A stretch of 64,000 nt of DNA from a candidate division WOR-3 bacterium (lineage in GTDB: Bacteria > Hydrothermota > 32-111), in assembly GCA_039804105.1 (NCBI GenBank), contig JBDRZU010000001.1, positions 160,001 to 224,000 of the forward strand, written 5' to 3'. Positions 8,049-38,161 of this stretch are shown here, in pieces. The position numbers were made by a program, and so were the translations under genes. The notes beneath the pieces are model-generated. The model ran no database searches. It was not told where the DNA came from and worked only from the letters and a program-made list of their open reading frames with translations. Within the stretch, counting starts at the first letter, position 1. Each line of letters starts with the position of its first letter.

Positions 8049-8906
8049 TTGAAATCTATAGATGTTTATCTTTATTTGAGATTTTCAAAAGACGAAAAAG
8101 AGGATAAAAAAATTGAAGAGAAAGTTCAAAAATTTTTAGATGAACAAAAAATTTACAGAGTGATAAAAAGGTTTACAGATGATCCTGATTCTGAGGATCG
8201 TGGACTTGCTGAACTTTTTAACTATGCACGAGTGAACGAAAGTGTTAAGAAGGTACTCGCATATTCAAGAGAGAATATTTCTCCTGATGATATTTTTACT
8301 ATGTGGGTTGAAAAGGAACTGATCAAGTATGGTGTAACTGTAAGATACATTGATGAAAAAATATCGGATTCTATCGATTATGAAATTTTAAGGGAAAAAA
8401 TTATAGGTGCTTTTGCAAGGTATGAAAAAGAAAAACTTCCAAACAAACTCGCTGCACATAGAGTTTTAAGAACAGTTGAAAAAAGATTAAAATCGAGTGG
8501 TAATTGTCCGTTAGGTTATAAATATGTTGGGAAAGTCAACGATAAAAGAATAGTTGTGGTAAAGGAAGAAGCAGAGATAGTTAAACTTATCTTCAACAAA
8601 TATTTAGAGTTCAAATCTCTTGGTCGATTAAAAGAATATCTTCAGAAGAACAATATAAGGACAAAAAGGGGGAAAATTTTTTCAAGACAGGCATTGTACA
8701 ACATTTTAACAAACAAGTTCTATATAGGTTTTTTGTCATACAACTATTATAAGTATATTGAAACCGAAAAAAACAAGAGGAAACCTGTTTTAATCGAGGA
8801 AAGAAGAGTTGAAGGTAAACATGAGAGGATCATCGATAGAGAAATTTTTGAAGAGGCGAACAGAATACTTGAAGAGAACAACAAACATAAAAACGATCTT
8901 ATTTGA
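8049..8906 (+). CDS. Serine recombinase-family protein (resolvase + recombinase domains), catalytically degenerate
   Basis: [44 protein letters not shown] start after AGGAG; DRLxR motif absent. Confidence 0.85.
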
Positions 8907-29867: not shown

Positions 29868-30607
29868 AAATTCTTCTATCAAACGATGATGGCTTTTACG
29901 CGGAAGGTTTGAAGACATTGAAAGAAATTTTAATCTCTCTTGGACATCAGGTTTATATAGTTGCTCCATCACAAAACCAATCAGCAACAAGTCATTCTCT
30001 AACTTTAACAATTCCTTTGAGGATCAACAGAGTTAATAAGAATGAATATATAACAACCGGAACACCAACAGATTGTGTTTTGATAGCAACACATGGATTG
30101 ATCAAAGAAAAGTTTGATTATGTTTTTTCAGGGATAAACCATGGACCAAATATGGGAGAAGATGTGATATATTCTGGAACTGTTGCTGCTGCAATGGAAG
30201 GTGTTTTGATGAATATACCCTCTGTTGCTTTTTCGATGGCTGCATTTGAAAATGTTGATTTTGCTTATGCAAAGGATGTTGTTCCAAAAATAATCGAACT
30301 TTTAAAACTTATAGGTAAGAGAAAAAGGTTGCTTTTGAATGTGAATATACCAAATAGTTCTATAAAAGGTTATAAAATAACAAAACTTGGAAGCAGGATA
30401 TATTCTGACTCACTCATAACAAAAATTGATCCGAGAGGGAAAAAATATTACTGGATAGGTGGAGAGAAACCTACATACAAGATAAAAAAAGGCACAGATT
30501 TTGAAGCGATCGAAAAAGGTTATGTTTCTATAACACCGATAACATTTGATTTAACAGATTTTAGAATGTTAACTAAAATTAAAAAGGTAGCGAAAAATGT
30601 CTTTTGA
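29858..30607 (+). CDS. surE: 5'/3'-nucleotidase SurE
   Basis: LSNDDG, GTPTDC, SGIN.GPNMG, YSGTVAAA. Confidence 0.97.
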   Translation: MSLKILLSNDDGFYAEGLKTLKEILISLGHQVYIVAPSQNQSATSHSLTLTIPLRINRVNKNEYITTGTPTDCVLIATHGLIKEKFDYVFSGINHGPNMGEDVIYSGTVAAAMEGVLMNIPSVAFSMAAFENVDFAYAKDVVPKIIELLKLIGKRKRLLLNVNIPNSSIKGYKITKLGSRIYSDSLITKIDPRGKKYYWIGGEKPTYKIKKGTDFEAIEKGYVSITPITFDLTDFRMLTKIKKVAKNVF

Positions 30608-31247
30608 AGATTTAAGAAAAAAGATGGTAGAACAACAGTTAAAAAAAAGAGGTATTAAAGATGAAGAACTTTTAAAGGTATTTGAAGAGATACCAAGAGA
30701 ATTTTTTTTACCAAAAGAACTTGTTAACCTTGCTTACGATGATTCTCCCATTCCTATAGGTTTTGGACAGACGATTTCACAACCTTATATCGTTGCAAGG
30801 ATGACTGAACTTTTAGAGGTGAAAAAAAATGATAGGATTCTTGAAATTGGAACAGGTTCAGGTTATCAGGCAGCGATTCTTTCAAAACTTGGGAAAGTTG
30901 TTTTTACTATCGAAAGGATAACAGAATTAAAAAAATTTGCAGAGTCAAATTTAAAAAAACTTGATATAAAAAATGTTTTTTTAGTTACAGGTGATGGAAC
31001 TATCGGTTTATCGAATTATGCGCCTTTTGATAAAATAATTGTTACTGCGGCATCTCCACAGATACCGAAAAACCTTGTTGACCAGTTATCAGATAAAGGT
31101 ATAATGGTTTTGCCATTTGGAGATATATCTTTGCAGGTGTTAACGAAAGTTATTAAGTCAAATGGTGAAATAAAAGTTGAAAAATACGACTACTGTAGAT
31201 TTGTGCCTTTGCTTGGTAAATATGGATTTTTTGAAAACGGGGTGTAG
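30597..31247 (+). CDS. pcm: Protein-L-isoaspartate O-methyltransferase
   Basis: GQTISQP, LEIGTGSGYQ, APFDKI, RFVPL; surE-pcm synteny. Confidence 0.97.
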   Translation: MSFEDLRKKMVEQQLKKRGIKDEELLKVFEEIPREFFLPKELVNLAYDDSPIPIGFGQTISQPYIVARMTELLEVKKNDRILEIGTGSGYQAAILSKLGKVVFTIERITELKKFAESNLKKLDIKNVFLVTGDGTIGLSNYAPFDKIIVTAASPQIPKNLVDQLSDKGIMVLPFGDISLQVLTKVIKSNGEIKVEKYDYCRFVPLLGKYGFFENGV

Positions 31248-31313
31248 CGCAGATGGAAGCGCGCTTGGTTCGGGACCAAGAGGTCGCTGGTTCAAGTCCA
31301 GTCACCCCGACCA
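31238..31313 (+). tRNA. tRNA-Pro (anticodon CGG)
   Basis: Cloverleaf: acceptor CGGGGTG/CACCCCG, D-stem GCGC/GCGC, anticodon stem CTTGG/CCAAG with loop TTCGGGA, T-loop TTCAAGT, 3' ACCA. Confidence 0.97.
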
Positions 31314-32831
31314 AATGCAACTTTTATCAATTTCTGGGTGAGGATATTTGCTCGCTTGCCTCGACTTCGGCTGCTCGCTTCGCAAATTCCCTTATATTTT
31401 GGGATTAAATCAAATGGACGGACAAAATCAAGAATTATTTTTCTATCAAGCAGGCGGCGGTTCGTTCCAATTTTTTCTACGAACGATTTAATTTCATCAA
31501 AATCGTTTGACGAAGCCAGTTTTTACGCTTGATAAGCGGATAAAATCCAATCTATCAATGGTTCAATCCAATTGTTTCCCTTTCGCCCCAAATTAGCCTT
31601 TTTCTGCAGAAGGGTAACTTTGACTTTAATGAATTCTTCTTTTTTAGCAGTATAAATATCTTTCTCAATTGAACCATCCAAAAAAAAGCATTTAGCAATC
31701 TATCAAGTTTTTGTTCTATTTCTTTAATTTCCTTTTCCAGATTTTTGGCCAAAGATTGCAAAGACTGGATATTTTCTTTTTCCCATATCTCAACTTGTGC
31801 CAACATCTTTTCTTTCCACTCTTCGCAAAGAGCGACTTTTGAGTTTTTTTATAATTTTTCAACTAGCAAATCTTCTCTTAGATATCTTTGAGAGCAAGGA
31901 CCGACCTGTTTTGTGCAATGATAGTAGCGGTATGTTCCGTCATTGCCATGCGCCCATTTCGCTGTAATTGCCGCGCTGCACTCACCGCATTTAAAAAGTT
32001 CGGTGAATGGGAAATAATGTCTTTTTTTCGAATGGCGTGGCTTAGTTCGGTTTTTCAAAACTTCCTGCACTATCTCAAAAGTTGCTCTGGAAAAAATTAG
32101 TTTAAACTTATCCTCATAAGTTTCACTATTGTGGACAATCAAGCCAATGTAAACTTTATTAGTTAACATTCTTTGGATTGTTGCTTTACAAAGTGGCTTT
32201 CCGTTTTTACTTATCACGCCCCAAAATTTAAGCTGTTCTCCTAAACTTTCTAAAGTATGTTTTCCATGGCTATATTCTTCAAATGCCCTTTTAATTATTT
32301 TTGATTTTACTGGGGCTAGTTCTATATTTCTTGTTTTGGGATTGTTCACATAGCCAAACGGCGCAAGTTCGGGCCATTCTACGCGTCTCAATTTTTGTCT
32401 AATCCCGCGTTTTACATTTTCGGACAAATTATCGAAGTAGTATTTACTCTAGCCAAAGTCGACTTGAAGCATAAAAAGTCCTTGCGGAATTGGCTCAAAC
32501 CAAAATGTAGGAAAACGCAAAGAAACGATCTTGCCAATATAAATAAGATAAATAATTTGTCCGCTATCAACACTGTTTCTAGCTAACCTGTCTGGATGCC
32601 AGGCCAAAATCCCAACAGGTTCTTTTGATTCATAAATTTTCTGTATCATGTTATTAAAAACTTCTCTTCCGAGTTCTTTGCACTTTTACTTTCAATAACC
32701 TTTTCAGCAATAAAAAGATTTTCTCTTTTAGCGTATTCCATCAACTCAGTTAATTATGCTTCAATGGACATCACTTGTTTTTCTTCATCTTCTGTTGATT
32801 TGCGAGCGTAAGGAAAATATTTTATTTTCAT
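31302..32831 (-). pseudogene. Large serine recombinase, multiple stops and frameshifts
   Basis: ATG 32831 MKIKYFPYARKSTEDEEKQ..(TAA); DRLARN; PFGY; CGEC/YYHC zinc ribbon; coiled coil; 3' end runs into the tRNA. Confidence 0.92.
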
Positions 32832-32952
32832 ATGTTTTCTCCTTAAATTTTAAAAACTGGCTTCGTATTTCCACCAAAGGCGGAAAAGAAAAAATTGAAA
32901 ACAAAATTTTCATTTTGTGCGTTGCTTTGCAACGTCGAACTGCCGTTGGTCG

Positions 32953-33131
32953 CAATTACTGAACGAAGCACGAACATATTTTGAACAAAATCATGACTAA
33001 CATGTTAGTCGCCTTCGTCGACGCACATCCACCTCCTACCCAACAGAAGCGGCGGGAAAAAATTCCTTCCCTCAGACCCGTTTCCTTTTTGCCGCCCGCC
33101 ATGCCCGCTTCGCGGGCGTGCCGCCGATTTT
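32953..33131 (+). repeat. Left arm of ~180-bp imperfect inverted repeat (att-like site plus GC-rich hairpin block)
   Basis: Reverse complement of 36527-36706; manual alignment 54/65 in block 32953-33017 and about 90% in block 33051-33131. Confidence 0.93.
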
Positions 33132-33156
33132 TAGGAAAGAAAAAATCAAAAAACTC

Positions 33157-33185
33157 TTGACATTATTAAAATAATTTTGTATCAT
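33157..33185 (+). promoter_or_regulatory. Promoter for the cargo operon
   Basis: TTGACA-17nt-TATCAT upstream of the XRE gene. Confidence 0.65.
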
Positions 33186-33227
33186 AATTATAAATTGTTA
33201 TTACTGCATATATACATCAATACTATA

Positions 33228-33446
33228 ATGTCAAAAGAGATTTCGCAAATGGGTAAAAATATAAAAAAATTAAGAGAACAAAAAGGCCTGTCCCAAGATT
33301 GGCTTTCTAAAATAGCTGATAATTCCTATAACACAGTCATAAAGTTAGAGTCGGGCGATATTACCAATCCCTCAATTGACACGCTTCAAAAATTAGCCAA
33401 GACTCTTAATGTTTCCGTTGATGATTTATTGAAAGTGCCAAAATAA
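33228..33446 (+). CDS. XRE-family HTH regulator (possible R-M controller protein)
   Basis: GKNIKKLREQKGLSQ..L.....KLESG...NPSIDTLQKLA..LNVS. Confidence 0.9.
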   Translation: MSKEISQMGKNIKKLREQKGLSQDWLSKIADNSYNTVIKLESGDITNPSIDTLQKLAKTLNVSVDDLLKVPK

Positions 33447-33450
33447 AAAT

Positions 33451-34503
33451 ATGAACGATTACAAAGAACGAAAATATTTATCTTCGATAGAGGCTGCCAA
33501 GTATTTAGGTATTACCGTTGAAATGCTACATAATTTAGTTAGATCAAAAAAAATCAAATGTATTATTGCAGCAAGCGGACAAAAACGCTTTGATTTAAGA
33601 GATTTAAAAGAATACGAAAAAACAAATCTTAAAATAGATAAAGAACATATTAAGGAAATAGAATTGCCTGTGGAAAATGTATTGAGCATTAATAATACTA
33701 TTCAAAAAATCTTTATTAAAAATGCTATGAGCATGGATGAATTAAAAGATGATTCAATCCATTTAATGGTTACTTCACCGCCTTATTTCGATGCCAAAAT
33801 GTATACTAAAAAACCGATCAAAAACGATTTAGGTAATATACATGATCTTGATGAATGGTTTGAGAAAATTAGTGCGGTTTGGAAAGAGGTCTTTAGAGTT
33901 TTACAGCCGGGGAGAAAAGCATTCATTAATATCATGAATTTACCTGTAAGAGACAATGGAGGATTTAAATCTTTGAATTTAGTTGGTAGCACTATAGATA
34001 TAATGGAGAAAATTGGATTTATCTTTAAAAGAGATATAGTGTGGCATAAAACTCATGGTGTTAAAGCACATTTTGGAACTTATCCATATCCAGGCGGAAT
34101 TCTTATAAATAATATGCATGAATTTATTTTGGAATTTAATAAACCTGACAAAAAGGGATTTAACAAATATGGACATCTAACTAAAGAACAAAAAGAAGCA
34201 TCCAAACTTGATAAAGAATTTTGGTTATCCCTTAAAAATACTGATGTTTGGCTTATGAAGCCGCAGAATAGTGGTGATAACCGTTTACATGTAGCCCAAT
34301 TTCCTTATGAGTTACCTTATAAAATAATTAAAGCATTTACCTTCGTTGGCGAAACAGTATTAGATCCATTTTTAGGAAGTGGTACAACCTTAAAAGCAGC
34401 GGCAGATTTAAAACGAAATGGTATTGGTTACGAGATTGTTCCTGAAATTGCAGAAACAGCGATAAAAAATTTAAACAATTATCAAAGTAAATTATTTGTC
34501 TAA
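33451..34503 (+). CDS. Beta-class amino-DNA methyltransferase (N4-C/N6-A) with N-terminal excisionase-like HTH
   Basis: LSSIEAAKYLGI HTH; motif IV TSPPY precedes motif I DPFLGSGTT. Confidence 0.93.
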   Translation: MNDYKERKYLSSIEAAKYLGITVEMLHNLVRSKKIKCIIAASGQKRFDLRDLKEYEKTNLKIDKEHIKEIELPVENVLSINNTIQKIFIKNAMSMDELKDDSIHLMVTSPPYFDAKMYTKKPIKNDLGNIHDLDEWFEKISAVWKEVFRVLQPGRKAFINIMNLPVRDNGGFKSLNLVGSTIDIMEKIGFIFKRDIVWHKTHGVKAHFGTYPYPGGILINNMHEFILEFNKPDKKGFNKYGHLTKEQKEASKLDKEFWLSLKNTDVWLMKPQNSGDNRLHVAQFPYELPYKIIKAFTFVGETVLDPFLGSGTTLKAAADLKRNGIGYEIVPEIAETAIKNLNNYQSKLFV

Positions 34504-35632
34504 AATTATGAAACAAGACGCAAAAACAATTTATGCTCAATCAAGCGATATTAAGTCTAGAACTTATCTAGAATATCGCAAAGATATGAAACAAAAAGCC
34601 ATTGCAGAACTAGAAGTTTTACCTTGGCTACGAGAGAAAGTTAAAGAGAAAGATAAAAAGGCTACAGTAGAAAAATTTGGTGGGGATAAATTTATCTGGT
34701 TTTTGAGAAAGGGAGGAATTACCAGAGAACCTGATTTTGTCATTAGATATTCGGACGGAAAAACTAAATTCGTTGAATTTCAATATGCAAAAGAAGAGCT
34801 AAATGCTTATGATTTTAAAATTTCTAAAATAGCTCCCCGAGATAGAACTCTAAAGAAAAGAGTCCCTAAAGATGATACAGAAATTTTATATGTTATAAAA
34901 CCAACTAACAAATTCGCTATTTTATATCCTTCTTGGATAGTTAGAAATTCAAAAGAAACAGTAGCAGCAGCATGGGGCAACGCCCCAGTATTTAGAGTAC
35001 CCGCTAATAAATTCAAAAAAGTTTTAATGACAGATAATAGCTTAAATAAAGTTTGTGACTCTATAGATAAAAAAATAGCAATTTTAGAATTTCAACATAA
35101 AGCTATTGAAATTGAAAAAGAAAAAATGTCCTACCTATTACAACAGGTTGTTGATGAAAAAAAAATTTTGAAAATAATTCCTCAAACATTAGATGGTTTT
35201 TTTAAGGTTTGTTTTATACTCAATCATCTAGAAAAAATTCCTATTAATGCTAATTTATGGCTTATCTACCTTTTGTCTTTTTTGAATACAAAATTAAACT
35301 CCCTAGAATTATTTCAGTTAATTTATAGTTTAGATTTTCTTTATTTAAAAATTGAGTTAAAAGAAAACGAGTTAAATAAATTAGTCGAAAGCTTAAAAGA
35401 GATTCAAAATCAGATTAATGAATTTTCAAAACCAGATGGTTCATATCAATCCGATAAAACTATATCGCCATTAGAAGATACAAGATATTCATTATTCTCA
35501 ATAAATATTCTTGAAGATTTAATACAAGATGTTTTGTATTATTATGGAAACAAAGTTAATTTGAAGCCCATTACTAGAATTTATCAAAATGTTTCAGATA
35601 TAGAGAAAACCTTTGAATTTATTTCAAAATAG
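34496..35632 (+). CDS. Putative restriction endonuclease with helical C-terminal extension
   Basis: PD-(D/E)xK-like REPDF...VEFQ; abuts or overlaps the MTase end; start may be 34508. Confidence 0.55.
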   Translation: MSKIMKQDAKTIYAQSSDIKSRTYLEYRKDMKQKAIAELEVLPWLREKVKEKDKKATVEKFGGDKFIWFLRKGGITREPDFVIRYSDGKTKFVEFQYAKEELNAYDFKISKIAPRDRTLKKRVPKDDTEILYVIKPTNKFAILYPSWIVRNSKETVAAAWGNAPVFRVPANKFKKVLMTDNSLNKVCDSIDKKIAILEFQHKAIEIEKEKMSYLLQQVVDEKKILKIIPQTLDGFFKVCFILNHLEKIPINANLWLIYLLSFLNTKLNSLELFQLIYSLDFLYLKIELKENELNKLVESLKEIQNQINEFSKPDGSYQSDKTISPLEDTRYSLFSINILEDLIQDVLYYYGNKVNLKPITRIYQNVSDIEKTFEFISK

Positions 35633-35634
35633 GT

Positions 35635-35994
35635 ATGGAAAATAGAATTAAGCATTTAGAATTTATACAATCTATAAATCAACAGAATGGCTAATAATTC
35701 ATTTATAATGAAAGTCTGGTCGATAACTTTGATTGCGGTTTTTTTGCTTTATCCTCAAAAGATGCTAACAAAAATTATATTGTCATTTCTCTCTTGCCTG
35801 TTATAATTTTTTGGATTCTAGATAGATATTTTTTATCTAGAGAAAGAGCATTCCTTTGTTTATATAACAAAGTAAGAAATTTACACGTGAAGGATATTGA
35901 TTTCTCTTTAGATATTTCAGAATTTAGAGAGCGAAAAAATAATTGGTTTCTGTCGATTTCTTGCATACAGTTTTATTTTTCTATGCTTCTTTAA
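35635..35994 (+). pseudogene. Frameshifted multi-TM protein of a family I recall being encoded beside TIR genes
   Basis: MENRIKHLEFIQSI /fs/ NRMANNSFIMKVWSITLIA /fs/ ..FWILDRYFLSRERAF..LY..VR..IDFS. Confidence 0.75.
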
Positions 35995-36036
35995 TAGATG
36001 TTATGTTAATAATTTCATATCTAATCAAGTAAAATT

Positions 36037-36528
36037 ATGGCAAGACGAGTATTTTTTAGTTTTCATTATGAAAGGGATATTTGTCGAGCAAGCCAAATTA
36101 GAAACAGCTGGATAACAAAACCAGACAGAGAAACCGCTGGCTTTTGGGTCGCTGCTTCGTGTGAGGAAGTAAAAAAGAAAGGCAAAGAAACAATTAAACG
36201 ATGGATTGATAATCAACTCAATGGCACATCTGTTACGTTAGTGTTAATAGGAGCTGAAACCAATGAGAGCAAGTGGGTTAGTTATGAAATTCAAAAAAGT
36301 TATCAAATTGGAAATGGTATGTTGGGTATTTATAATCGTAATATGAAAGATCAGTATGGACGAACTTATTATAAAGGTAAAAATCCATTTTATAATTGGT
36401 CTATTACAAGAAATACTCAAAAAATTCTTCTTTCATCTCTTTATCGGACTTATGATTGGGTTTCTGATAATAGATATAAGAATTTAGTTGATTGGGTAGA
36501 AAAAGCGGCGAAAGATGCTGGAAGATAA
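36037..36528 (+). CDS. TIR-like protein (MTH538/DUF1863, Thoeris ThsB-like)
   Basis: RRVFFSFHY..D, TSVTLVLIG.ET..SKWV.YEI with catalytic Glu. Confidence 0.9.
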   Translation: MARRVFFSFHYERDICRASQIRNSWITKPDRETAGFWVAASCEEVKKKGKETIKRWIDNQLNGTSVTLVLIGAETNESKWVSYEIQKSYQIGNGMLGIYNRNMKDQYGRTYYKGKNPFYNWSITRNTQKILLSSLYRTYDWVSDNRYKNLVDWVEKAAKDAGR

Positions 36529-36706
36529 AATCGGCGGCTCGCCCACGAAGCGGGCATGGCAGGCGGGCAAAAAGGAAGGGGTCTGGGGGAAGGAATTTTT
36601 TCCCGCCCTTTAGTTTTGAGTGTCGCGGGGGCGACCGTATTCGAAGACGACGCAAAGATTAGTCAGAATTTTGTTCAAAATATATTCGTGTTTCATTCAG
36701 TAATTG
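36527..36706 (-). repeat. Right arm of ~180-bp inverted repeat, includes predicted attR half-site
   Basis: Reverse complement matches 32953-33131; encodes QLLNETRIYFEQNSD* on the minus strand. Confidence 0.93.
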
Positions 36707-36782
36707 AGAAAATTTTTAAATTTCTTTGTTTCTTGACACTTTTCATGATTTAAATAAAATCAAATTTTTAAAAGGAGGTAAT

Positions 36783-37361
36783 ATGAACAATAAATTTTTC
36801 ACATTTATTAAACCTTATCTTGCATTCATCGACAATGGAGATTTCTTTAAAAAACCATTTTTATGGCTTTACACAATTTTAGCGTTAATCAATCTGATTA
36901 TTCCTATTTATATTCTTTATGAAGCAATTGACAACAAGATTTTTGATGCTGGGGCAAAACATGTTTTTATATTTTTTATAGTTTGGTTGATAATAACTTT
37001 TGCAAGTTGGGTCAGTTTTCAGTTGTGGTGGGATAGAAGGTTTAAAGTTGTTTCCATATCGAAAATGGGGGACGATTTTGTTGTGATTCCAATATTTTCA
37101 CATTTTGTTCAAACAGCAGGGGAATGGATAGGAACATGGCTTGGTATCGTTGGTTTTTTTAGTTCTCTTCTTGTGTCTTTATTTATTGGAGAAGAGGGTA
37201 GTAATTTTATGCAAAATTTAAACCTTGGTTTTTTGAGTTTGAATTTCATATTTATTATTTTAATGCCTGTAATTGGTTTTCTGATAATAATTGTAACAAG
37301 ATTTTTATCTGAACAGTTCAAAGCGATTGCGATGATCGCTAACAATACGAAAAAAAGTTGA
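36783..37361 (+). CDS. Hypothetical multi-pass membrane protein
   Basis: AGGAGG SD before ATG 36783; about 4 hydrophobic helices. Confidence 0.75.
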   Translation: MNNKFFTFIKPYLAFIDNGDFFKKPFLWLYTILALINLIIPIYILYEAIDNKIFDAGAKHVFIFFIVWLIITFASWVSFQLWWDRRFKVVSISKMGDDFVVIPIFSHFVQTAGEWIGTWLGIVGFFSSLLVSLFIGEEGSNFMQNLNLGFLSLNFIFIILMPVIGFLIIIVTRFLSEQFKAIAMIANNTKKS

Positions 37362-37385
37362 AAGATTGAAAAGTTTAAGATTTAC

Positions 37386-37411
37386 AATGGGGGTGTTATA
37401 AAACCCCCATT
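37386..37411. terminator. Probable bidirectional intrinsic terminator
   Basis: AATGGGGGT-loop-ACCCCCATT hairpin between convergent genes. Confidence 0.7.
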
Positions 37412-37426
37412 CTTTATTAAAAAAAT

Positions 37427-38161
37427 TTAAAAAAATTGTTCTTCGATCTTTTGAATATTTTCTTTTATCAATTTTTCAATCTCTTTTATCACAAGTTCTG
37501 AATATTTTTTACATTTTGTTTTATTAAGATCAATTTTCCCGCCATTTTCAGAGTAAAGTATTGTTGAAGCAGGTGATGGTATAGATTCAAAACCTTCTAT
37601 AGAAATATTGTAAAGATTTTTATCGTTAATATATTTTTCATTTATCTGTTTATCATCTATGATTTTTACCATCGCTGTTTCATCAACTCCACCATGTCCA
37701 CCTTCCTTACCAAAAACTTTTTTACAGAAAGGATATCCAATGATCCACCAATGGATTATAAAGACAAACATTCCAGTTTCTAAAAAGATTTTCTTTTTTA
37801 AATTTGAAAGAACTTTATTGTTGCCACCATGTCCATTCATAATGATAAGGTATTTAAAATTTTCCTTTTTCATCGATAAAGCGATGTCAAAAATTAATTT
37901 TTCAAAGGTCTCATCTTTTAATGTAACAGAACCTGGATATGGTAAAAGTGAAGATGTGATCGAGTAGTGAACAGGCGGGTAGATAAGCCCATTGAGTTTG
38001 TCAGCAAGTTTTTCACAAATATATTCGGGGATTATCGTATCTGTTCCATTTGAAGTTATCGAATGTGCTTCAAGAGTTCCTATTGGAAGAAAAGCAATAT
38101 CACATTTTTCTTTCAATTTTTTTATATCTCTCCAGTTGAGTTTATCTATTCTTCTTTCCAT
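37427..38161 (-). CDS. Creatininase family protein
   Basis: PIGTLEAH, GTD, NGHGGN, GHGGVDET. Confidence 0.92.
   Translation of the reverse strand: MERRIDKLNWRDIKKLKEKCDIAFLPIGTLEAHSITSNGTDTIIPEYICEKLADKLNGLIYPPVHYSITSSLLPYPGSVTLKDETFEKLIFDIALSMKKENFKYLIIMNGHGGNNKVLSNLKKKIFLETGMFVFIIHWWIIGYPFCKKVFGKEGGHGGVDETAMVKIIDDKQINEKYINDKNLYNISIEGFESIPSPASTILYSENGGKIDLNKTKCKKYSELVIKEIEKLIKENIQKIEEQFF

Follow-up and report, generated by a model that had tools for sequence, protein, structure and literature searches.

A decayed element in tRNA-Pro(CGG) of a candidate division WOR-3 bacterium, probably from a family of large serine recombinases with attP inside their own gene

Phage-type large serine integrases, such as those of A118/LI, SPbeta (SprA), Bxb1 and phiC31, carry Resolvase, Recombinase and Zn-ribbon domains, recombine at a 2-bp core and need a separate directionality factor for excision; the half-sites of attP have the zinc-ribbon motif 5 bp farther from the centre than those of attB. 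We analysed a stretch of 64,000 nucleotides from a candidate division WOR-3 bacterium (positions 160,001 to 224,000 of contig JBDRZU010000001.1, hereafter the window), in which an insert with a large serine recombinase (LSR) pseudogene lies in a tRNA-Pro(CGG) gene. The element and its relatives share the domains, the core and the 5-bp shift with the phage-type enzymes. In contrast to these, attP lies here in the enzyme's own reading frame, so that integration strips a conserved C-terminal helix, the tail. A second, inverted attP lies inside the element, and no conserved directionality-factor gene was found. The best explanation, which we consider highly probable, is that the insert is a decayed member of a family of LSR elements whose reading frame spans its own attP.

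Attachment sites inside the integrase gene are known from the archaeal 'suicidal' integrases of SSV1, pTN3 and pT26-2, which have in common with the present element a tRNA target and the puzzle of how mobility is kept (passages of PMC8371274). The same passages describe them as tyrosine recombinases split into N and C halves, which separates the catalytic domain, and as exclusive to archaea (PMC8371274). In the present family, by contrast, we found serine-recombinase domains only and bacterial hosts; neither the tyrosine fold (Phage_integr_3) nor a split of the catalytic domain into two inactive halves was seen, 13-22 C-terminal codons are lost, and a spare end would be carried on board. No self-splitting integrase would have been known before from bacteria, nor any among the serine recombinases.

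A further parallel is the integration-dependent immunity of the mycobacteriophages BPs and Brujita, in which attP also lies in a gene, and integration into a tRNA gene removes the 3' end and alters the behaviour of the protein (passages of PMC9262239). No directionality factor is encoded according to Broussard 2013 as cited there, and the passages add that the split gene is the repressor, that the integrase is a tyrosine enzyme with a 35-bp core, that an ssrA-like degradation tag is removed, and that mycobacteriophages with serine integrases do not use tRNA genes (PMC9262239). Here the split gene is instead the recombinase, and its tails end variably after ...F-E-Q-N-P, not in -LAA.

The yeast 2-micron plasmid replicates autonomously, and its tyrosine recombinase, Flp, acts at sites within two long inverted repeats, which partition the circle into two segments. 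The circle we infer for the present element would likewise consist of two unique segments, recombinase and cargo, between near-identical inverted repeats, each with a recombination site. No published description of a serine recombinase with attP in its own gene was found in the full-text literature, a search that leaves subscription journals uncovered, and the family is apparently undescribed. An enzyme with a C-terminus rewritten by its own reaction would make it directly testable how direction is chosen by serine integrases in the absence of a partner protein, a question of practical weight for genome engineering.

The insert and its split recombinase gene

The insert comprises window positions 31311-36709 (5399 bp) and lies inside tRNA-Pro(CGG), which is preceded by surE- and pcm-like genes. 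The recombinase gene, starting at 32832 on the minus strand, adjoins the tRNA directly. The features that define the two ends are as follows.

31238-31313, plus strand: tRNA-Pro(CGG), the tRNA side of attB (ARAGORN; Rfam gives 31238-31310)
31309-31310: crossover dinucleotide GA at attL, the only 2 bp common to attB, attL, attR and the internal attP copy
31305-32832, minus strand: LSR pseudogene, running into the tRNA (Pfam Resolvase, Recombinase and Zn_ribbon_recom; tblastn of the closest homologue, P0001)
36527-36709, minus strand: right arm, consisting of the split-off recombinase tail (codons 36706-36662, stop 36661-36659) and then a terminator-like stretch; element side of attR
36708-36709: crossover dinucleotide GA at attR; host sequence restarts at 36710

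The initial annotation of this DNA had proposed a search for relatives with an empty tRNA-Pro site, and one was present in a genome of the same genus (G004). There, a pcm gene, its protein 95% identical to that of the window, is followed by tRNA-Pro(CGG) ending ...CACCCCGA, by a 63-nt AT-rich spacer, and by an 87%-identical homologue of window open reading frame (ORF) 36783-37361, with the 5399 bp missing between. The tRNA-Pro of this empty site (L014 1435-1507) has no encoded CCA. Since the window CCA at 31311-31313 is the complement of the conserved Trp codon of the recombinase and is absent from the empty site, it is the element that supplies the CCA of the tRNA. With GA as the only core, the exact cut is not placeable from sequence. 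The element of another genome of the same genus, G001, shares CCGCCA at the crossover. A contig of a third genome, G003 (L016 2142-2266), stops 49 nt past the same tRNA-Pro, perhaps because assembly broke off where a related element begins. An Rfam scan of 30500-37500 returned the tRNA and one weak chance match only, with no known RNA family in the arms.

The window recombinase gene is dead. Its central 199 codons (32448-31852) are uninterrupted, 87% identical to P0001, and match PF07508 Recombinase (6e-13) and PF13408 Zn_ribbon_recom (1e-8). The Pfam Resolvase match on the middle piece of the pseudogene is weak (0.0047), and the Y-x-R-x-S serine motif is retained (...YARKST...). Relative to P0001, the gene has four premature stops (32756-54, 32451-49, 31851-49 and 31525-23) and frame changes near 32670, near 31690 and, twice, within 31400-31330. 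The initial annotation had read the 3' end as KSCIWSG and a stop, running into the tRNA. We found the same reading: minus-strand frame 0 ends ...EIDKSCIWSG, TGA, with its last base at 31305 within the tRNA, and P0001 has ...RNDKSCIWS where the window gene has ...EIDKSCIWS. The accompanying caveat, that this frame differs from the one upstream, was correct and understated, as two shifts of frame (1 to 2 to 0) are needed within the last ~100 nt to follow P0001, in addition to the further lesions.

The missing C-terminus was located at the far end of the insert, as had been proposed. Read downward from 36709, the minus strand gives TC, T, 15 codons (QLLNETRIYFEQNSD) and TAA at 36661-36659. The last 15 codons of the recombinase gene and its terminator-like arm are the opposite end of the insert, and joining the two ends at the shared GA/TC (31309-31310 and 36708-36709) keeps the reading frame, again as proposed. 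The unsplit tail of an internal copy and the tails of homologues and family members, both described below, show that this fit is no coincidence.

A search for protein relatives returned 1186 at E <= 1e-20, and C-termini were tallied in the 120 protein clusters nearest to the 199-residue piece, with which they share 67-87% identity. The tail was present in 23 of the 120 clusters, 70 ran antisense into a tRNA, and 27 were truncated or otherwise ended. Tailed clusters read ...W-S and then Q-L-L-N-E/A-V/A-R-T-F/Y-F-E-... (for example ...WS and then QLLNEVRTFFEQNPE), consensus W-S-Q-L-L-N-E-x-R-T-[FY]-F-E, which bears out the ending W-S-x-L-L-N-E-x-R-x-Y-F anticipated for intact homologues; clusters with tRNA antisense ends read ...WSGR.DLN.... 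The tail is thus what the unsplit gene genuinely ends in. When all retrieved loci were scanned for the motif, 112 tails of the family were obtained, of which 82 were distinct as DNA sequences. Homologues match Pfam Resolvase at 2.7e-19 (P0027) and 4.8e-20 (the G001 protein) and also contain the Recombinase and zinc-ribbon domains; among solved structures, SPbeta SprA (9dxh, E 1e-9) and the A118 integrase (4kis) come closest. Together with an internal joint described below, the homologue tails and the empty site place attP within the recombinase gene, in agreement with the earlier suggestion that integrated and unintegrated forms encode different C-termini.

The internal inverted copy and the element family

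The initial annotation missed that the tail belongs to an inverted repeat of 183 nt, of which it forms one arm, the other being part of a second, unsplit attP. At 32899-33131, just upstream of the recombinase gene and head to head with it, the 3' end of the gene recurs in inverted orientation together with tail and arm. This copy (P2) has two parts.

32899-32952, plus strand: R2, a remnant of the inverted recombinase 3' end, ending ...CRWS; only about its last 16 nt still resemble 31311-31326
32953-33131, plus strand: left arm, with an intact tail ORF (QLLNEARTYFEQNHD, stop 32998-33000) and a GC-rich terminator-like stretch; with R2 it makes up the second attP (P2)

The repeat pairs 36709-36527 (minus) with 32950-33131 (plus) at 79% identity, and these are its only two copies in the genome. 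The P2 frame is open from 32899, reading ...NCRWS, QLLNEARTYFEQNHD and stop, and it is matched in tblastn (E 0.004) by the 17 C-terminal residues of P0002, an intact homologue. At 32925-32975, far-end sequence and recombinase-side sequence are continuous across the same GA. Because it joins both sides across GA, the internal copy is a paralogue of the predicted circle joint, that is, a second intact attP. The circle junction that had been suggested as a search target was thus present as this paralogue and was not seen in the public contigs. RNA folds of three arms gave z values of -2.0, -0.7 and -2.9, with terminator-like hairpins and no convincing common structure. Relatives have 120-200 nt of recombinase 3' end at the place of R2, and public contigs, from relatives at 90-95% likeness, contain joints of 31464 to 32896-32935 on opposite strands. 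Since its recombinase is dead and P2 is without most of its recombinase-side half, the window island is a fossil.

The arms flank the cargo exactly (33132-36526), as the ends of a separate restriction-modification/TIR cassette nested in an older island would, in which case the right end would never have been recombinase. We consider this origin hardly credible. The right arm ends at the host junction set by the empty site, the arm is continuous with the recombinase 3' end in the internal copy, the tail is in frame in intact homologues, and the far-end tail adjoins host flank in 19 other loci; these observations contradict a separate cassette.

The family survey covered 80 of 506 and 79 of 571 relatives from two contig collections. 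Most of these 159 classified loci were from metagenome-assembled genomes of Patescibacteria, with other phyla also represented, and most were short-read assemblies. The recombinase 3' end ran into a tRNA in 103 loci, into the tail in 12, to the contig end in 31 and into other sequence in 13. The tRNA targets were Ser (46), Pro (43), Gln (8), Lys (2), Trp (2), Ala (1) and Ile (1). Among the 79 tRNA-ended loci with usable upstream sequence, the inverted copy led into the tail in 55 and into other DNA in 10, and was lacking in 14; in 16 further tRNA-ended loci the contig stops within the inverted copy, as it does in 21 of the 159 loci overall. The copy had a median length of 144 nt and a median identity of 98.7% (75 measured), and lay a median of 126 nt from the start codon. 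A P2 of this kind, inverted and unsplit, is a feature of all elements in good preservation. In the 19 loci where the far-end tail met host flank, the two tail arms were 84-100% identical (median 98.0%, 16 loci), and the elements so delimited measured 3.2-10.7 kb. By clustering, no cargo protein family occurred in at least 3 of the 19 delimited elements, hence no conserved directionality-factor gene, although clustering cannot prove the absence of such a factor; nor were replication genes conserved among them. The survey shows a large family of small integrative elements, 3-14 kb in size, with the LSR as the sole conserved gene. The family is abundant, with the above number of proteins and more than 500 relatives in each of the two collections. 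IMG/VR viral contigs searched with P0027 gave no relative.

An intact homologue in G001 illustrates the complete arrangement. This 544-residue protein, 45% identical over the central 199-residue piece, runs into tRNA-Ser(CGA). Just upstream of its gene lies a 134-nt inverted copy of the 3' end, 99% identical, which continues into the tail YLLDKIRTYFEQNPDADF, and matching arms lie 12 kb off at the far end. The attR of this element (L022 16020-16080) is a hybrid, with the tail arm up to the shared GGTTCGAA followed by the last 17 nt of tRNA-Ser and host flank. Tail codons 1-5 are swapped here for the tRNA 3' end, which therefore occurs twice, and the tail at the far end does not stay in frame.

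Further loci suggest that P2 is used in nature. In one element (99.9% identical over 1362 nt), loci L129 and L168 have the inverted copy joined to the tail, and L125 has it joined to tRNA-Pro(GGG); divergence begins exactly past ...TGGTCG. In L052 (1-2786), the recombinase lies between tRNA-Ser GCT upstream and tRNA-Ser GGA downstream, both of which adjoin copies of its 3' end; this arrangement implies recombination at each of the two attP sites, and the chromosome was probably inverted in the process. L169 and L170 are 100% identical and carry a flank of tail plus cargo on the 3' end of the gene in one and, inverted, on its 5' side in the other. Either the two are isomers that arose by inversion, or the assembly graph was ambiguous at a perfect repeat of 273 nt. 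L123, L075 and L089 have tails on both copies. The genes in L075 (11378-11590) and L089 (11362-11620) end in divergent tail-like peptides (...VVDDVRTYW... and ...LWDDIRTEL...) with normal inverted copies, and these recombinases may be hybrids with older elements.

Could the internal copy be without function, as what remains of a second element of this kind or as a duplicate homogenised by gene conversion? The degenerate state of the window P2, with its divergent arms and nearly lost recombinase-side half, would fit such an origin, as would the 24 of 79 informative integrated loci in which the copy is absent or joined to other DNA. Also, no consistent start codon for the copy as a gene of its own was found in 69 copies, in which the frame stayed open for -5 to 133 codons past the repeat. 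We judge this explanation unlikely. The copy has the same place and orientation in recombinase clades that are ~45-60% identical and have different tRNA targets, its high identity extends far past a minimal att site, its tail frame and stop are maintained, and it is joined to tRNA in L125 and L052.

The tail as half-site and as protein segment

The tail carries a motif that is also present at the tRNA side. In attL, TTCGAAC occupies nt 12-18 past the divergence point and corresponds to the T-loop of the tRNA in reverse complement; its place in the tail is nt 17-23, in codons 6-8. The offset of +5 was found in 36 of the 39 pairs with the motif on both sides (at most one mismatch; 50 pairs examined), and the spacing in the window is alike, with CTTGAAC at nt 12 and CACGAAC at nt 17. 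In the attB model of Rutherford et al. 2013, as given in passages of PMC3783163, the zinc-ribbon domains are moved 5 bp towards the crossover, from bp 16-24 onto 11-19. The +5 offset matches this attP/attB geometry, so that the tail side is a P-type half-site and the tRNA a B-type half-site. The T-loop is thus the putative motif recognised by these recombinases, and recognition of so universal a sequence would explain the range of tRNA targets. Read as the attB motif, the T-loop would account for the spread over at least 7 tRNA species and many phyla, and the T-loop mimic with its 5-bp shift would be a sequence-level rule by which one family targets many tRNA genes.

These results raise the question of whether the tail is a functional protein segment, or whether the frame simply runs through attP to a stop and conservation is that of a DNA half-site. 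The T-loop mimic in codons 6-8 at attP-type spacing favors the half-site alone. The Arg-7 codon, moreover, scarcely varies at any position, and near-invariance of its DNA is in keeping with constraint on a DNA site; ahead of the tail, ~30 residues form a variable, disordered linker, and most integrated genes are intact without the tail. We nevertheless regard a tail without protein function as quite improbable. Conservation reaches codons 11-14 (E/D, Q/E, N, P), 33-42 nt from the crossover and past the 25-bp half-site of an LSR, and the stop is held at 13-22 codons. Third positions vary most, with diversities of 0.39, 0.30 and 0.51 at codon positions 1, 2 and 3, and synonymous changes make up a fraction of 0.50 of the single-base codon differences found in the tail versus 0.21 in the 14 codons before the crossover, in a test whose tails were chosen by protein motif and which is partly circular at positions 2-3 and 6-10. 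The Leu codons 2-3 differ at positions 1 and 3 and never at position 2, with exchanges between CTN and TTR.

An AlphaFold2 model of P0027 also points to a protein role. Built from 22 close tailed homologues, with a mean predicted local distance difference test score (pLDDT) of 75.5 and a predicted template modelling score of 0.48, it gave a linker at 487-505 with pLDDT below 50 and a confident tail helix at 507-521 (block pLDDT ~88). LSRs have a coiled-coil motif inserted in the zinc-ribbon domain; in the model, long helices at 338-385 and 391-418 were predicted after the zinc ribbon. The tail is therefore predicted to be a conserved helix tethered by a variable, disordered linker.

Mobility of the element and its cargo

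Recombination at the 2-bp GA/TC core beside the tRNA discriminator base leaves the body of the gene at attL, antisense into the tRNA, and the last 13-22 codons with the terminator-like arm at attR, the other end of the element. The circle, or a gene joined to the tail of P2, would yield full-length enzyme, and the integrated gene a tail-less one. Because no conserved directionality factor was found in the cargo, the tail swap is an obvious candidate for control of direction or activity, and we tentatively suggest that it may set either of these in place of a separate factor. That P2 serves as a spare end, from which the gene could regain a tail by inversion between the near-identical repeats or by integration via P2, is a possible but somewhat doubtful extension; a built-in spare end would offer an answer to how self-splitting integrases remain mobile. 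Equally speculative is the combined picture of a two-state device without a directionality factor. In this device, the regulatory helix would be removed by the enzyme itself, the spare end would flip the gene segment between tail-less and tailed states, and orientation would decide whether the element stays or leaves. Inversion, whether homologous or site-specific, would bring about the flip, much as it does in the 2-micron plasmid, and the excess of the arrangement with the gene running into the tRNA would then mean that this is the stable state. Characterised LSRs do not recombine attP with attP (PMC3783163).

Several observations weigh against parts of this account. A single 2-bp exchange evidently does not account for the hybrid attR of G001. 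Integrated genes were uninterrupted in 79 of 98 cases, and in 11 of the remaining 19 no stop occurs before the extension that derives from the tRNA. This argues against the view of the integrated gene as a dead end, and also means that the tail-less form may simply be fully functional. A recognisable P2 with tail was, as noted, absent from 24 integrated loci. The contigs that suggest a flip (L125, L132, and L169 versus L170) end inside the repeat, where assembly-graph ambiguity is possible. Parts of the stretch occur as Logan contigs in five hot-spring metagenome runs from two studies, four of which were compared. The contigs of these four contained neither the 36709-to-31311 joint nor the 31310-to-36710 skip, although contigs cannot show absence; no circle junction is expected for the window element because its recombinase is dead. 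Terminal overlap, indicating a circular contig, was seen in 0 of the 159 loci.

The cargo of the window island consists of the following genes.

33177-33446, plus strand: Cro/C1-type HTH protein, like a restriction-modification control protein (Pfam HTH_3 2.7e-15; PADLOC Control_protein 2e-8)
33451-34503, plus strand: type II N6/N4 DNA methyltransferase with N-terminal HTH_17 (Pfam N6_N4_Mtase 3e-44, HTH_17 1e-7; PADLOC MTase_II 1e-57)
34496-35632, plus strand: 378-residue ORF with no match in Pfam, PADLOC or NCBIfam; by position, a candidate restriction endonuclease
36037-36528, plus strand: ThsB-like TIR protein (Pfam ThsB_TIR 4e-23; PADLOC ThsB 2e-60)

For the window alone the significance is modest, this being a dead island with a restriction-modification system and a TIR gene. 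The HTH_17 domain at 33451-33620 (plus strand) is of the excisionase family and might serve regulation or excision; the NCBIfam 'excise' match was below cut-off. No ThsA partner of the ThsB-like TIR gene was found within the island, to which this search was confined. Between the 378-residue gene and the TIR gene, 35636-36000 holds short broken ORFs that look like a decayed gene for a small membrane protein. Outside the island, a second, distant serine-recombinase-like gene lies at window 8067-8894 (plus strand), with 22% identity to P0001 over ~290 residues. The same gene was also matched in the search of the element's own genome, at 29% identity in a 292-residue open frame.

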